Shown here: positions 12,308-41,154 of the stretch, in pieces
Layout: the number at the start of each line of letters is the position of its first letter
How positions within the stretch are numbered: the first letter of the stretch is position 1
From: an uncultured Erysipelotrichaceae bacterium
Lineage (GTDB): Bacteria > Bacillota_I > Bacilli_A > RF39 > UBA660
NCBI GenBank assembly: GCA_902783895.1
Contig: CACZST010000009.1
Location: 1 to 49,162, forward strand
Direction: 5' to 3'
Length of the DNA: 49,162 nt
The notes under the pieces: model-generated
Database searches by the model: none
The model's input: the letters and a program-made list of their open reading frames with translations, nothing else
What the model was told of the DNA's origin: nothing
Position numbers and translations under genes: made by a program

Positions 12308-14365
12308 TTATTCATTATTATTGGTAGTAGAGTCACCATCGCCACCACCGTTTGGTTGGCTACCATTATCATTATGGTCATTATCGCCTTCAGAACCACC
12401 AGCTCCACTTCCACTAGGTTGACCACCACCTTGGCTTCCGCTACCACTAGTATTAGAATTTGAATTACCAGATGAAGGTGTCTTATTTGAAGACGAATTA
12501 CCATTTACTTTATTAGAATTTGTATCAGTCTTCTTATTACTTGCAGCCGCACCTCCAGTTGTAAGAACTATTGATTTAGCATCTTCAACATTAGCACCAG
12601 CCGGAACACTCTGTTTAACAACTGTTCCTTCACCACCAGATACTGAAACTGAAATACCATATTGTGATGCCACAGATCTAGCATAACTTGTAGATTTACC
12701 TACAAAATTAGGAACCTGAACCAAACTCTTTTTACCAGTTACATTTTGACCAATTACCTCTTCTTCATAAGGTTTATTAATATCAAAACTAAATGATTTT
12801 TCTACTTTAACTTTCTTTTTACCTAAATTCTCTTTCATGGCATCAGAAACTGCTTTAACACTATTATCATATAAAACATAATTATAAAGTGATAAATTAG
12901 TTCCACCATAGTCAACAATTCTTGCATCATAACCATTTAAATGAAGTCTTTGCATTCCTAAAGCATCTGTAATACTTCCGCCACCTGCTTTATTCATCGC
13001 ATCTTTAAATACATTATAAAGTGATAGAATTTGATCAGTACTCATATTAGTTGTCATATTATTACTAATAGTATCTAAAAGTTTATTAACTGTATCCAAA
13101 CTATTAATATTCTTTACCTTTTCAAGTAATGCTGTAACAATTTCTTGTTGATGTTCACCTCTTACAAAATCACTACTTGTATAATTGGTATATTTTTTAG
13201 GACACATACCAGGATTAGCATGTCTATTACGAGCATAAGCCAAAGCTTGCTCTCCATTTAAAGTTTGCTTACCTTCTTCAATATAAACAGTATTGTTACC
13301 CCACCTTCTATTACTATCTTGTTCACATAATGCATAAGGAACATCAATATCAACACCACCTAAATTATCAACAAGGGAAACAACACCCTTAAAGTTTATT
13401 TTCACATAATAATCAATGTCAACATCTAGGAAATTAGAAATTGTATCCATCATACAATTTTCACCTTTCCAAGCCGCATGAGTAATTTTATTTTTTCTAT
13501 TACCTGAAAAACATGCAATAGGAACATACGAATCACGAGGAATACTTAAAATTGTTGTACTTAAAGTTTTAGGATTAAATGTAAGAAGCATTAATGAATC
13601 ACCATTAAATGAACTATTTTTTATTCCCTCAGCTTCACTATCAACACCCATTAATAAAATTGTAAATGGTTCTGTTATCTTCTTTGAAGTATTAGAACTA
13701 CTCTTTTCCTTAACCTTCTTAGTTTGTGTAAATAATATTTTAGTTTTATCTTTAATATCTTCATAACCTTCCATACTACCAAACATTACAGAATAATTTG
13801 TTGGAAGGAAAACATAATCGATTTTACCATCATATAAATCATCAATCATTGAAATATAACTATCATATTTTTCTGTTTCATTTTTTAATTTTTTTTCTTT
13901 AATTACTTCATTTGGAATAGTATAACCTTCAATACTAGTCTTATCATCTAGAATACCTATTTTAGAAGATCCAATATCATCAATATCTGAAGATTTATTA
14001 TCCTTAAGAGTAACTAAACTTGAAGAATATGTTTTATATCCATCAGTATCACTAATCGCAGTTATTGTTCCATATATTTTATTAACATATGTTGCAACAA
14101 AGAAACTAGCTCCACCAATCAAAAGCATTAAAATAATGATAACAATATTTTTTGCTTTCTTATTTTTATTTAAATATCTCTTTCCTAAAATAAATAAAAG
14201 TAAACAAATTAAAACTAAAACAATACTTAAAACAAGTCTCCAAAAATTTTCAATATTATTTAAAAGTGATACAGTGTATACCAAATACCCTGCCCCACAA
14301 ATCATCAAAATTTCACTAATTAAAGTTACAAAAGATAAAATTTTATTTCTCTTTGACTTCTTCAT
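12308..14365 (-). CDS. LCP (LytR-CpsA-Psr) family protein with 3 N-terminal TMs, PASTA domain and Gly/Ser/Asn tail
   Basis: LLMGVD, DSLML, SIPRD, GEQALAYARNR, R..HQQ; VPNFVGKS...VVKQS PASTA. Confidence 0.92.
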   Translation of the reverse strand: MKKSKRNKILSFVTLISEILMICGAGYLVYTVSLLNNIENFWRLVLSIVLVLICLLLFILGKRYLNKNKKAKNIVIIILMLLIGGASFFVATYVNKIYGTITAISDTDGYKTYSSSLVTLKDNKSSDIDDIGSSKIGILDDKTSIEGYTIPNEVIKEKKLKNETEKYDSYISMIDDLYDGKIDYVFLPTNYSVMFGSMEGYEDIKDKTKILFTQTKKVKEKSSSNTSKKITEPFTILLMGVDSEAEGIKNSSFNGDSLMLLTFNPKTLSTTILSIPRDSYVPIACFSGNRKNKITHAAWKGENCMMDTISNFLDVDIDYYVKINFKGVVSLVDNLGGVDIDVPYALCEQDSNRRWGNNTVYIEEGKQTLNGEQALAYARNRHANPGMCPKKYTNYTSSDFVRGEHQQEIVTALLEKVKNINSLDTVNKLLDTISNNMTTNMSTDQILSLYNVFKDAMNKAGGGSITDALGMQRLHLNGYDARIVDYGGTNLSLYNYVLYDNSVKAVSDAMKENLGKKKVKVEKSFSFDINKPYEEEVIGQNVTGKKSLVQVPNFVGKSTSYARSVASQYGISVSVSGGEGTVVKQSVPAGANVEDAKSIVLTTGGAAASNKKTDTNSNKVNGNSSSNKTPSSGNSNSNTSGSGSQGGGQPSGSGAGGSEGDNDHNDNGSQPNGGGDGDSTTNNNE

Positions 14366-37084: not shown

Positions 37085-38860
37085 TCTATCTATAAACCAA
37101 TTTTCTGAAATATCACAGCTATCACTTGAAGGTGCTGGCGAAGGCTTATCCATTCTTATCAAAACTGGAACCTTAAAAGCTGTTCCAAAAGCCATACAAT
37201 TACCTGGAAGTAAAACCCTAAGCCTTTTTACAATTTCATTAGTAATATTTGGAACCATGTCCCTAATATATTGAATATCCCTTGGGTGAAGCATTTTATA
37301 TATCAAAAAATTATTACACTGTGAAATAGAAGTTTCAGATAAATCAGAAGGTCTTTGAGAAATAAGGCCAAGTAAAACACCATATTTCCTTCCCTCTTTT
37401 GTTATACGATCAAAAATATTATAACCAAGTAAATTAACATCATTATCATTTTGAACATACCTGTGAGCTTCCTCTAAAATTATATGGAAGGGAAGTGATG
37501 CTCTTCTATCTAAGTTCTTCGCATATTCAAACAATAATCTAGAATAAATTTTTGTAATTGTTTTCGCAAATCTATCATCAACATAATTAATATTAAAATT
37601 AATTATCTGAGCCTTTCTACCATTAGGTGCTGTAAGCAAATCTTTAATATAATCATCCTTAGATACATATTCATCACATTCAAAATATTTTGCATAATCC
37701 CCATTTAAAAGTGAATGAAGTCTAACCCTTAATATATTATTATCATCATAAATTTTTTCACTAGTTAAAGACCCCTCACTTATAAGCGCAAAATCTAAAG
37801 CTATTTTTAAATCCTCAAGGCCATATTTAAATGAACCATCAGGCATCAAAAGTTCAACATTATCATCCTTAAACGTCTGCATAAAATTAGTAAGCAATTC
37901 CATTTCTCTTATTTTACCCGATGCATCAATTAATAAACATTGTTTAAGTGGTCTAGAATAACCTGGCTGATAAATAACAGTATCTAAATTTAAATCCTTA
38001 GTATGATAAGTTGATAAAATAGAGAAAATCTGATCCCTTATCTGTGAAGAATTATTTCCAGAAGATAAAATCTCTAATATTGCTCTTGCAATAATATCAT
38101 TTTTTTGTTTAATAACCTCATCATCTTCTCTGCAAAAAAGACCAACCAACTTCAAAGCTTTTTCAATTATTGGAATTTGATTAGCTGATGTCGCATTAAG
38201 TAAAAGTGCAATATCATCAACCGATAAAAGCCATAAAGGTATTTTTAATATTTCCGTATCCGAAAATTTTGTATTAGTTGTATATGCCTTAAAACTAATC
38301 TCAGGAACCTTTTTATTAATTGATTCAAATGCCTTATGATATTCACCATAAGCATCAAAAATAAATATTGATGCTCTATATGCAACCGTATTTTGTTTTT
38401 CAAAAATACTTTGAATAAGTTTAGCAACTCCCCATGATTTACCAGAACCAGTTGAACCAAATATCGCAAAATGATTAGCAAAAAAAGAATTAATATCAAA
38501 TCCAATTTTAACACCTGGATAAATAGGACTATCCCCAATAAATAAATTCTTTTTCTCCTCATAATTATCAACACTTATAATCATAGGTATTTTTTCTTTA
38601 GATATAATTTTTACTGTTGCAGCAAAAGAAGGCTTTCTCATAACCCCAAATACAAATTTATTATCAATAATTTGACCAATTAAATTCACATAAGCAATCC
38701 CATTTTTTATATCTATAATCTCACCAACAAAAATCTCATCAGCATCTTCCATTACCACATGTAAATTTACCAAATTTTGAAATTTATTAAGTTCAATATT
38801 TAATTTAACTAGTATAGTATCTTCTTCAATTCCAACTATTGCCCCTAGCATATTCATCAC
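37079..38860 (-). CDS. HerA/FtsK-family ATPase (DUF87)
   Basis: HFAIFGSTGSGKS, FDAYGEY, LEEAHRY, KEGRKYG, SQRPS. Confidence 0.9.
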   Translation of the reverse strand: MMNMLGAIVGIEEDTILVKLNIELNKFQNLVNLHVVMEDADEIFVGEIIDIKNGIAYVNLIGQIIDNKFVFGVMRKPSFAATVKIISKEKIPMIISVDNYEEKKNLFIGDSPIYPGVKIGFDINSFFANHFAIFGSTGSGKSWGVAKLIQSIFEKQNTVAYRASIFIFDAYGEYHKAFESINKKVPEISFKAYTTNTKFSDTEILKIPLWLLSVDDIALLLNATSANQIPIIEKALKLVGLFCREDDEVIKQKNDIIARAILEILSSGNNSSQIRDQIFSILSTYHTKDLNLDTVIYQPGYSRPLKQCLLIDASGKIREMELLTNFMQTFKDDNVELLMPDGSFKYGLEDLKIALDFALISEGSLTSEKIYDDNNILRVRLHSLLNGDYAKYFECDEYVSKDDYIKDLLTAPNGRKAQIINFNINYVDDRFAKTITKIYSRLLFEYAKNLDRRASLPFHIILEEAHRYVQNDNDVNLLGYNIFDRITKEGRKYGVLLGLISQRPSDLSETSISQCNNFLIYKMLHPRDIQYIRDMVPNITNEIVKRLRVLLPGNCMAFGTAFKVPVLIRMDKPSPAPSSDSCDISENWFIDRK

Positions 38861-38971
38861 CTATTATAATAATATCACAAATAAAATAATAAACAAAGTT
38901 TAAAATAAAAAGATTATTAAAACCTAATAAGATTAAATAATCTTTTTTAAATATATTATCTAAGATTTATA

Positions 38972-40114
38972 TTATTTTACCTTTTTTCCTGTAATTCTTT
39001 TCATTATCAAAGCTGACCCAATTACACAAGCGAGTCCTAAACCTGCAATTATTATTGAACCAAAAGCTGATGTGGATGGTACCTCTACTACCTGTCCGTT
39101 ATCTACTTTTATTTCATCTTTATTTCCTTCATCTTTTGGTTCTTCTTTTATTTCTTCCATATATTTTGAAATTGTATATGGATTAGTCTGACTTCCTTCT
39201 CCGCTTAATGTAGTTTTAGCTAATAGGAAGAATGCAGGACGGGCGGCGAGTCTGTCCATCGCCCTGTAGTTGCCTGATAACGCACTATAACTGTCAGAGA
39301 CATTGAACAAGCCGCCCGCATATTGATCAGAACCAGGTGAAAGCATCCACGGATAATTATTTGAATATAAATAATTATGTGTACTACTATTAGTATAACA
39401 CACTGAATTATTGCCAACATAATCCCATAAATAATCTTTTACACTCATACACGCAACATTTGAGGATGATTTTACATAATCAGTCGCATTCATTAAGGCT
39501 ACTTTACCCTTCCACTTATATGCACTTTCTTCTTTTATACTTTCTGATAAATTTGTTTGATTATCTGCAGTTGGTCCAACATTCCACAATTTTTCTACTA
39601 TCAAACTTTTTACATCATCATTTAAATTATTATAAAAATCATTATTTAAATATGTATTTAAACTTGCCTCTTTATCTGGTAAATTTTTAAGTGTCCCATT
39701 TACTTCCCGTGGCATTTGGGTTACTTTGTTACCATTTGTATCTAAAGTAGTTGTATTACTTCCCCATGATTTACAACCATATTGGCTTGTGCAAAAATCA
39801 TCACTATTTGTTGAATATCTAGCATTTTCCTCATCCCATGCCATATATCCGATACTTTCCTGTTTAATAACCTTTATTGTTCCATCTTTTTCTAACGATA
39901 TTATTCTATATAGATCATCACCTAATTTAATATAGTTATTTGGATTACCTCCTTTATAAATATATCTTCCTGCTATAGTGGTGTCTTTATAAAGTCCATC
40001 ACCCTCAGTCACAACATTTTTCTTTAGTATATCTGCGGTTTTCTCTATTGCTTTTACTGGATAAAAAGATATACTTAAAAGAAATATTGTTAGCGTTAAA
40101 AATAATTTTTTCAT
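38972..40114 (-). CDS. membrane-anchored surface protein with a DUF6273/CLec-like domain
   Basis: Signal peptide; YIYKGGNPNNYI..G..LYRII; WMLSP...F.V......A....ARPAFFL...GEGSQTNPY; VPSTS + TM + basic tail. Confidence 0.7.
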   Translation of the reverse strand: MKKLFLTLTIFLLSISFYPVKAIEKTADILKKNVVTEGDGLYKDTTIAGRYIYKGGNPNNYIKLGDDLYRIISLEKDGTIKVIKQESIGYMAWDEENARYSTNSDDFCTSQYGCKSWGSNTTTLDTNGNKVTQMPREVNGTLKNLPDKEASLNTYLNNDFYNNLNDDVKSLIVEKLWNVGPTADNQTNLSESIKEESAYKWKGKVALMNATDYVKSSSNVACMSVKDYLWDYVGNNSVCYTNSSTHNYLYSNNYPWMLSPGSDQYAGGLFNVSDSYSALSGNYRAMDRLAARPAFFLLAKTTLSGEGSQTNPYTISKYMEEIKEEPKDEGNKDEIKVDNGQVVEVPSTSAFGSIIIAGLGLACVIGSALIMKRITGKKVK

Positions 40115-40188
40115 ATATTTAATCCTCCCTATCTTACAATACCAGTTTATCAAAAAAAGTAATATTTTTGGTAAATAATTAACTTGTT

Positions 40189-41154
40189 TTAGATAATTGA
40201 TATTCTAACTTCAAAGGAAACATCTTTTAAAAGTCCTAATTTAATATGACCAGATTTCATAAATTTAATAAACCCTAAGCCTTTTATCACTAAATCATAT
40301 CCACTTTTAATATCAATATCATAATAAACAAAATCTTCTTTTACTTTATCTTTATAAAATCTTTCAAGTTTTAAATCATTTGACATATAAAGGGTAATAT
40401 TATTATCATCTAAAGTTAAAGAGGCAAAATCATCAATAAATAATGTCTGAAAATGTTTTATCTGATATGTAATTGGTCTTATTGTTTTTCTAGGTAAAAT
40501 CCTTTTTAATTGTTCAAAATTAGCTTTTAAATAAATACTACCTTCATCTAAAATTCCTGGTGTATCAATAAGTGTTAGATCATCATTTACTTTAATTGGA
40601 TTCATACAAAGTGTTGTCGAAGGTAAATTACTTGTTGTAATATCTTCAGGCATACCACCATAATTTTTTAAAAACTTATTTATTAAAGTTGATTTACCAG
40701 CATTTGTAAATCCAACCACATATACATTATCACTTTTTTTATTTTTTAAAATCATATCATAAAGTTCATCTAAATGATAATTATTCTTACCGGAAACAAA
40801 TATTTTACCTACTACATTTAATTTTATTTTTTTAAGGAAATATTCATCATCAATACTTTTAGGTAATATATCTTTTTTTGTAATAACAAGTATTATTGGA
40901 TTTTTTATTTCAATATCATTTAAATTATACAAATTCAAAAAATCAGTAACTAATAATACTAAATCACCTGTTTTATTTATCTTTTCTATATTTTTTAAAT
41001 ACTCCAAGTTATCCTTAGAAGAGAAAGAATAATTGTTATAATGCTTTATCTGAAAACATCTTTCACAAAACTTATTATTTAAATCTTTAGTATAACCTTC
41101 CTTTTTACTATCTTCATTTTGCATTATCACCCCGCAACCTAAACATCTAATCAT
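40189..41154 (-). CDS. yqeH: ribosome biogenesis GTPase YqeH
   Basis: CLGCG...CERC Zn finger, TKKD, GFTNAGKST, DTPG; start MIRC. Confidence 0.9.
   Translation of the reverse strand: MIRCLGCGVIMQNEDSKKEGYTKDLNNKFCERCFQIKHYNNYSFSSKDNLEYLKNIEKINKTGDLVLLVTDFLNLYNLNDIEIKNPIILVITKKDILPKSIDDEYFLKKIKLNVVGKIFVSGKNNYHLDELYDMILKNKKSDNVYVVGFTNAGKSTLINKFLKNYGGMPEDITTSNLPSTTLCMNPIKVNDDLTLIDTPGILDEGSIYLKANFEQLKRILPRKTIRPITYQIKHFQTLFIDDFASLTLDDNNITLYMSNDLKLERFYKDKVKEDFVYYDIDIKSGYDLVIKGLGFIKFMKSGHIKLGLLKDVSFEVRISII

Follow-up and report, generated by a model that had tools for sequence, protein, structure and literature searches.

A GC-rich patch in a membrane-anchored DUF6273 protein gene is probably a remote variable region of a diversity-generating retroelement

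The stretch of DNA analyzed here (the window, 49,162 nucleotides) is contig C9, GenBank CACZST010000009.1, of the draft genome of an uncultured Erysipelotrichaceae bacterium (genome G000: 1.03 Mb in 51 contigs, 27.2% GC, rated 78% complete). A minus-strand gene at 38972-40153, the target gene, carries a short GC-rich patch that an earlier note, made from the sequence alone, took for a variable region (VR) diversified from a distance by a diversity-generating retroelement (DGR). We conclude that the patch was very probably written by a DGR, based on its composition, its pattern across a family of paralogs, its homology to verified VRs in related genomes, and the presence of DGR machinery in the same genome. 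The patch is thus a remote DGR target, a new member of a kind that is already known.

An exact count over positions 39231-39352 reproduced the figure of the earlier note, 65 G or C in 122 nucleotides (GC 0.533, versus 27.2% for the whole genome), and the 120-nucleotide windows on either side have a GC content of 0.24-0.36. Translated on the minus strand in the open reading frame (ORF) 38972-40153, the patch reads ...PWMLSPGSDQYAGGLFNVSDSYSALSGNYRAMDRLAARPAFFL..., running from PWMLSP to ARPAFFL. Codon counts were taken over the 36 codons from S-P through R-P-A (39340 to 39233). Codons ending in C (NNC) make up 12 of these 36, compared to 19 of 358 in the remaining gene (Fisher p 2e-6), and codons ending in G or C (GC3) 18 of 36, compared to 64 of 358 (p 4e-5). 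Lys and Glu, which account for 56 of the 358 other codons, are absent from the patch, and base content shifts from GC 0.30 and A 0.42 in the remaining gene to GC 0.53 and A 0.19. Encoding the identical amino acids with local synonymous codon usage would be expected to give 6.0 GC3 codons where 18 are observed, and amino-acid content is therefore not the explanation of the composition. These values fall within the range of the 13 VRs verified in this study (GC 0.51-0.62, A 0.12-0.19), at its low-GC, high-A edge. The five template repeats (TRs) in the comparison set have a GC content of 0.46-0.48 and an A content of 0.24-0.33; the TRs found here, with 24-33% A and many Asn codons, fit the premise of the earlier note that AAC-rich templates yield NNC codons.

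Stretches of this composition are rare in the genome, where 125 of 102,925 sampled 120-nucleotide windows (0.12%) reach at least 50% GC. We judged the 28 regions with a GC content of at least 0.48 by their underlying content: nine are VR-type patches (that of the window, those of seven paralogs, and a verified VR on contig C51) and one is a non-coding stretch on contig C18. The other 18 comprise five over tRNAs, two at contig ends without a long ORF, and 11 within long ORFs, several of which are Gly/Ala/Pro-rich or repetitive. A second GC-rich stretch in the window itself (12321-12460) lies in a 698-residue minus-strand ORF; it is Ser/Gly/Asn-rich low-complexity sequence and not a VR-type patch.

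The target gene belongs to a large family. Searches of its own genome with tblastn identified 15 further near-full-length copies (58-74% identity), several contig-end fragments, and about ten remoter relatives, with 22 matches at E<=1e-60. Many copies are located at contig ends, and no second copy was found by tblastn on C9, as the earlier note had stated for the window. Across 64 other genomes of the genus, no homolog exceeds 57% identity, and the family expansion is therefore lineage-specific. Paralogs share the flanks on both sides of the patch and are hypervariable in sequence and length between W-x-x-S-P and G-V-R-P-A-x-Y-L. Whether they also share the anomaly was a question raised by the earlier note: many do, with a GC3 of 0.52-0.71 in the patch versus 0.13-0.17 in the remaining gene, while other patches are intermediate (0.32-0.40) or at background (0.19).

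To look at the fixed positions within the patches, we aligned the nine GC-rich paralog patches, which extend over 39-45 codons from the W to the final L. The lower-GC copies on C4, C16, C38, C39 and C36, four copies on C34, and the second copies on C14 and C35 were excluded, along with a fragment on C18. Among the 36 near-invariant columns (of 128), T occurs in 12, G in 11, C in 12, and A in just one. In the 120-nucleotide flanks, by comparison, A occupies 26 of 66 near-invariant columns upstream and 35 of 68 downstream (61 of 134 in total), a difference with a Fisher p of 3e-7. Tested against the A content of the patches themselves, the shortage has a p of 0.01, and both values apply to patches selected as GC-rich, a choice that alone lowers A. 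The fixed codons (GCG, GTG TTC, GTC, TTG, GGC GTC CGT CCT GCG) are free of A and the codons between them differ, which is the expectation for adenine-specific mutagenesis, here gauged by proxy from paralog columns in place of a template comparison. The window copy deviates from this family scaffold at 3 of the 36 columns; six other members deviate at one to four, and for two no departures were recorded. A view of the window copy as a scaffold outlier undergoing GC-to-AT decay was dropped, as its three departures resemble those of its paralogs.

Direct comparison of templates and VRs was possible in related genomes. RVT_1, the reverse transcriptase (RT) profile, has matches in 38 of 61 relatives' genomes, including 27 of 36 of the same genus. 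The loci L009-L038 list 26 RT frames, 15 with an IGxxxSQ-type motif and nearly all of those with YMDD or a close variant. Within 1.5 kb on either side of these 15 frames, three have a clear TR-VR pair, with mismatches concentrated at template adenines: 14 of 15 in L033 (genome G014), 12 of 14 in L030, and 18 of 20 in L034. The G014 target ends in ...WWWTISP...GGVRPAFYLKSNITLSGAGTSSDPY, and its TR-VR homology starts at the S-P codons and stops at GGCGTTCGTCCTG, agreeing with the patch in the window at both limits.

Genome G082 is the decisive case for the family of the target gene. Its TR, on contig C35 of that assembly, adjoins a gene for a MutS-domain-I accessory protein and an RT with IGNLTSQ and YMDD motifs. 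Four VRs match this TR, each on a different contig other than C35, and TR adenines account for 70 of the 80 mismatches. One of these VRs lies in a gene fragment at a contig end; the other three host genes encode proteins that share 42-52% identity with the window protein in alignments of 293-365 residues (E 3e-77 to 6e-91). The G082 template encodes SP-5x-A-2x-EF-x-V-3x-G-x-L-4x-A-4x-GVAPA, a scaffold shared by the consensus of the G000 family. A GC3-rich, A-poor patch is also present, at the same position, in sister-family genes of G028 and G083. Remote targeting is also seen in G009, a single contig of 1.52 Mb with two full cassettes, each arranged target-TR-bAvd-RT. The TR of its second cassette matches six further paralog VRs dispersed over the chromosome, with 12 of 21, 14 of 27, 16 of 26, 17 of 31, 18 of 32, and 8 of 11 mismatches at template A.

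Based on these pairs, a VR-type core can be delimited in the target gene at 39233-39340 (minus strand): 36 codons from TCA CCT (S-P) to CGT CCT GCA (R-P-A), GC-rich, A-poor, and hypervariable among paralogs, both limits being those at which TR-VR homology begins and ends in G014 and G082. At its 3' boundary lies the GC-rich sequence GCCGCCCGTCCTGCA (39233-39247, minus strand), at the position where verified TR-VR homology stops in the relatives (GGCGTTCGTCCTG in G014, GGCGTCGCCCCAG in G082); we regard it as a putative homing signal.

DGR machinery is also present in G000 itself. On contig C51 (2,215 bp), reached via the G082 template, a VR at 952-1065 forms the end of a surface-protein gene (ORF 1-1089, its 5' end cut by the contig start), and a non-coding, Asn-codon-rich TR is located at 1254-1370. 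TR adenines account for 20 of the 24 mismatches between the two, and the TR exceeds the VR in length by one codon; a DGR has therefore acted in this genome. A genome-wide scan for A-biased repeats produced no other convincing pair. The C51 contig additionally has an 83-residue ORF past the TR (1476-1724), without a match to relatives' accessory proteins, and a (CA)n run near its end. Searches with relatives' RTs (tblastn) showed that contigs C41 (3-191) and C44 (3-200) each begin with the C-terminal ~65 residues of a DGR-type RT, with 58-59% identity to the G082 RT, their best match (E 1e-15). These tails are 97% identical over 196 nucleotides and the contigs diverge completely past the stop codon, which argues for at least two RT loci in G000 whose bodies and upstream DNA are unassembled; the diagnostic IGxxxSQ/YMDD region is likewise absent from the assembly. 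The sole RVT_1 match in the assembly is on C20 (3-1337, its 5' end cut by the contig start), in agreement with the statement in the earlier note that the window has no RT. It was rejected as a DGR enzyme, being an AbiP2-type defense RT (PADLOC E 1.3e-155).

Together, these observations suggest the following model. The RT would copy RNA from a non-coding TR, placing random bases opposite template adenines, and the cDNA would then replace the VR (mutagenic retrohoming). We propose that this process wrote the patch, which would explain why it is abruptly GC-rich and A-poor, has an excess of NNC codons but no Lys or Glu, and shows A-free scaffold codons that are fixed among paralogs while the intervening ones differ. 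The target protein would be secreted and stay attached to the membrane through a C-terminal anchor, with the VR as the end of its DUF6273 domain, and the gene would belong to a family of remotely served targets specific to this lineage. We infer that the template of this family lies, or lay, in one or more unassembled cassettes upstream of the C41 and C44 RT tails. The smallest G000 contigs are ~2.1 kb, and a repeat-flanked DGR cassette of ~1.7 kb would presumably be lost in assembly or binning.

Several results weigh against this model. No TR fitting the patch was found in the G000 assembly by blastn or scaffold searches, nor by an ungapped scan of the assembly with ten family VRs for positions holding 'VR base or A' (at least 85%), nor by the genome-wide scan for A-biased repeats, and none of the 64 congeners has a template for it (0 matches at E<=1e-3). 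A full DGR RT is absent from the 78%-complete assembly, as are bAvd (neither PF05635 nor PF22296, the family of the relatives' Avd, has a match) and a MutS-like accessory protein (MSL), the sole MutS_I match being an 864-residue frame; tblastn with relatives' accessory proteins had no match in G000 either. With the assembly at 78% completeness and lacking the sequence upstream of the C41 and C44 tails, these searches do not establish that the template is absent from G000. The selection of the nine aligned patches, mentioned above, counts on the same side, as do their differing lengths and the near-invariance of only 36 of 128 columns, from which it follows that they are not all current products of one template. 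Several candidate templates were rejected: the C51 TR is compatible only with its own cis VR, and at contig edges the DNA downstream of family genes is AT-rich or cut off. The notion that C15 and C18 are a single locus split by VR heterogeneity was rejected as well, their 93.7% identity marking them as distinct paralogs. The family gene on C18, which is followed by SecDF- and RelA-sized ORFs, has directly after its stop codon a non-coding stretch of ~110 nucleotides with about 50% GC (C18:285-395). This stretch contains a perfect hairpin, GTCCCTGCCTTAT...ATAAGGCAGGGAC, and the first 13 bases of the stretch also terminate contig C15.

The allele itself appears stable. The runs with G000 are labeled bovine, gut, and terrestrial metagenomes, and contigs from three of them, each from a different study, contain the allele of the window with 0 differences (X1 and X2 over 39192-39512, X3 over 39252-39556), a further point against; contigs conceal minor variants, and one of these runs may be the source of the assembly. 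Their flanking single-copy contigs likewise show 0 differences. In X1, the contig with the patch has a depth of 9.4 versus 18.5 for the flanking single-copy contig 40129-40500 (9.8 versus 6 in X2), but contig depths are not comparable enough to reveal another allele in part of the X1 population. A drop in summed contig depth in the bin 39240-39303 across all four runs was discarded, because contig depth cannot rank parts of a gene, as were single contigs that skip the patch (for example, X5 from 39225 to 39347), whose joints at 80% likeness most likely derive from paralogs. A scan of a metagenome collection for other alleles or a family cassette returned 15 loci, all at most 38% identical to the window protein; the species is either not represented there or was left out. 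The unchanged allele lowers the likelihood that the VR is active now, not the likelihood that it was written by a DGR. Of the earlier proposal, a remote VR targeted in trans thus stands, through its position at the end of a DUF6273 domain, its homology to verified VRs (four of them in trans in G082), and the DGR machinery of its own genome, but without the template. Looking for a template and an RT in the genome and its relatives, as the earlier note had suggested, turned up DGR RT tails and relatives' TRs but no template fitting the patch. Its strain comparison gave a patch that is invariant across three studies, as far as contigs show, and ongoing diversification is accordingly unproven.

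Whether the VR is still being rewritten is a separate question, and the odds favor a dormant or orphaned copy over an active one. The somewhat favored alternative is that the patch is a relic, formerly written by a DGR, that lost its template or saw it change, and now evolves as ordinary frozen coding DNA. The invariant allele and the failure to find a template both fit, and the family GC3 values (0.59-0.71, 0.32-0.40, and 0.19) are as expected of copies decaying at different ages. The contents of one gene slot point the same way. In the yqeH-to-radical-SAM slot (GTPase-ATPase...radical SAM), G009 has a family-like gene, a 681-residue ORF with an N-terminal small-GTPase motif (presumably feoB), and its first, full DGR cassette. 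The corresponding slot in G012 has an IS200-type transposase gene and a 229-residue frame with a DGR RT motif, whereas in G000 the ATPase gene abuts the radical-SAM gene, with no DGR elements between. The G012 frame covers only RVT_1 profile positions 116-205 and adjoins the radical-SAM gene; with the Y1_Tnp transposase gene directly upstream (L066:6252-7505, E 7e-37), it looks like an RT gene truncated at the transposase gene. Targets left behind by lost DGRs are described for Treponema denticola in the available text of PMC4891356. A relic is harder to reconcile with the two or more RT tails and the verified TR-VR pair, which show that the genome has not lost DGR machinery overall, and with a patch composition still in the verified-VR range. 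The lesser, though real, chance is that the VR is actively diversified from an unassembled C41 or C44 cassette, so rarely or conditionally that one allele dominates. RT tails are present and best match the G082 RT, which serves a sister family; the patch has no clear decay relative to verified VRs; the three scaffold departures of the window copy are in line with the one to four of its paralogs; and the lower depth of the X1 patch contig is a weak hint, given how poorly such depths compare. Disfavoring activity are the identical allele in three runs from three studies, a template found nowhere searched, and the differing patch lengths, by which most copies cannot share one live template.

Explanations that dispense with reverse transcription fare much worse. 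A hotspot of cassette exchange or gene conversion among paralogs, with GC-biased conversion lifting the GC content, is improbable. It would be helped by the large family with well-conserved flanks on both sides, by the many copies at contig ends, and by a non-coding unit in G063 that is 100% identical to an expressed VR over 106 nucleotides, as cassette copying would produce. Conversion homogenizes copies, however, whereas the patches are the most divergent part of these genes, and it leaves unexplained both the avoidance of adenine in near-invariant columns and the adenine-specific TR-VR mismatches of the sister family. Least probable of all is that the composition is a by-product of protein constraint (Gly/Ala/Pro/Arg-rich), of a horizontally acquired segment, or of an embedded RNA element. 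The conserved W, P, G, R, and A do require G+C-rich codons, but the GC3 codons observed are three times the number predicted, and the patch recurs at the same position in paralogs and sister families. Rfam has no match in window positions 38000-41000, and 3' of the patch there is no GC-rich hairpin, the inverted repeats there being two, short, and AT-rich. A DGR-written VR thus remains the best explanation of the patch.

The G063 unit is part of an unusual arrangement. In both G063 (contig C7, L106:1400-2560, minus strand) and G009 (L050:2670-3825), about seven tandem template-like units of ~155 nucleotides are located between a target gene and bAvd, each running from TGTCGCCGT to GGCGTCCGCC and followed by a conserved spacer of ~45 nucleotides. 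Across these arrays, the gene matched differs from unit to unit. In the G063 array, A accounts for one of 30 invariant columns, and Asn codons are abundant in the unit closest to avd. Unit 6 corresponds to a remote VR, from which it differs at 16 positions, 10 of them A, and unit 2, the non-coding copy identical to the cis VR, is not A-rich. The array was rejected as a template set for the ten sister-family genes of G063, as its matches are limited to the cis VR and a single remote gene, one of the long-target type. Several TRs per individual are remarked upon in the available text of PMC4891356; otherwise, a search of full-text literature found no multiple or tandem templates in the portions accessible. 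It is conceivable, if doubtful, that the GC-rich patches of the family (at least eight copies, including that of the window) are acceptors of an unassembled multi-template cassette like those of G063 and G009. If so, adenine mutagenesis would be combined with a stored set of cassettes, and one small genome would subject at least a dozen surface receptors to programmed variation.

The layout of the target gene is consistent with a surface protein. The gene is listed as encoding 393 residues from a TTG start at 40153; the true start is likely the ATG at 40114 (MKKLFLTL...), judging from an N-terminus common to the paralogs (MKKLF/MKKLI). A putative signal peptide, MKKLFLTLTIFLLSISFYPVKAI, would occupy 40046-40114 (minus strand). 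The DUF6273 match spans 39224-39673 (minus strand; residues 161-310, profile positions 34-170 of 172, E 4.7e-7), with the patch at its C-terminal end. Downstream, a conserved module, FFLLAKTTLSGEGSQTNPYTISKY, precedes an acidic/Lys-rich linker (together 39065-39232, minus strand), both kept in paralogs and sister families; conserved TTLSGEGSQTNPY lies between the patch and this linker. The linker leads to a putative C-terminal hydrophobic anchor, FGSIIIAGLGLACVIGSALIM, read from the translation and kept in paralogs (39002-39064, minus strand), and to the basic tail KRITGKKVK, in line with the further sequence and transmembrane anchor that the earlier note had placed downstream of the patch. 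Gene order in the window is yqeG-like phosphatase, GTPase, target, HerA-type ATPase, and radical SAM.

DUF6273 targets, remote targets, MutS-like accessories, and orphan targets have each been published already. In the accessible parts of PMC11792537 and PMC10743442, DUF6273 is described as a DGR-target domain with the VR at its C-terminus, in Faecalibacterium prophages Lelie, CP11, Roos, and Pioen (PMC11792537) and in 'tentaclins' (PMC10743442). Those phage targets adjoin their own RT and TR. The window protein, by contrast, is cellular and membrane-anchored, and its gene belongs to a family with multiple copies on the chromosome; for at least 9.8 kb around it on the contig there is neither a template nor an RT. 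A likeness is seen to the non-phage DGR of Treponema denticola, for which the available text of PMC4891356 and PMC5758913 describes TvpA-type targets at remote sites and, in isolates that have neither RT nor TR, orphan targets: there, too, several dispersed paralogous surface-protein genes are targeted, and targets outliving their DGR are described. As far as its accessible text goes, PMC5758913 gives seven non-adjacent targets in Treponema and, for a set of ten DGRs, 29 targets at distances above 100 kb. It also describes MutS-like accessory genes and assigns MSL-containing DGRs, including the Legionella DGR, to 'Architecture D' of Wu et al. 2018. The G082 cassette, with its TR, small MutS-domain-I protein, RT, and targets on other contigs, resembles this architecture, and the G000 RT tails match the G082 RT best. 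The likeness is limited by what is assembled in G000: of the RT, only the C-terminal ~65 residues, and neither an MSL, an Avd, nor a template for the family. According to the same portions of PMC5758913, DGRs with an MSL have avd as well; none was seen in the fetched part of the G082 cassette.

The founding example of a DGR is the mtd-avd-TR-brt system of Bordetella phage BPP-1. The window's system as we reconstruct it would share with BPP-1 adenine-specific mutagenic retrohoming, a VR at the C-terminal end of a ligand-binding domain, and a GC-rich 3' boundary, but BPP-1 has a single target, in cis and in a phage, and Mtd was not among the fold matches obtained. The BPP-1 system is named in the available text of PMC3521204 and PMC4159848.

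Metagenome DGR surveys centered on the RT cannot see remote targets, by their own statement in the accessible text of PMC8144416. In this case, composition alone correctly flagged a remote target, although the RT bodies and templates fell in assembly gaps. For annotation, such patches can be read as DGR-type variable tips even with no RT in view, while activity should not be assumed. For the organism, a genome of ~1 Mb gives roughly 2% of its DNA to one anchored, DGR-type family (about 16 genes of ~1.15 kb each), which points to heavy investment in variable ligand binding.

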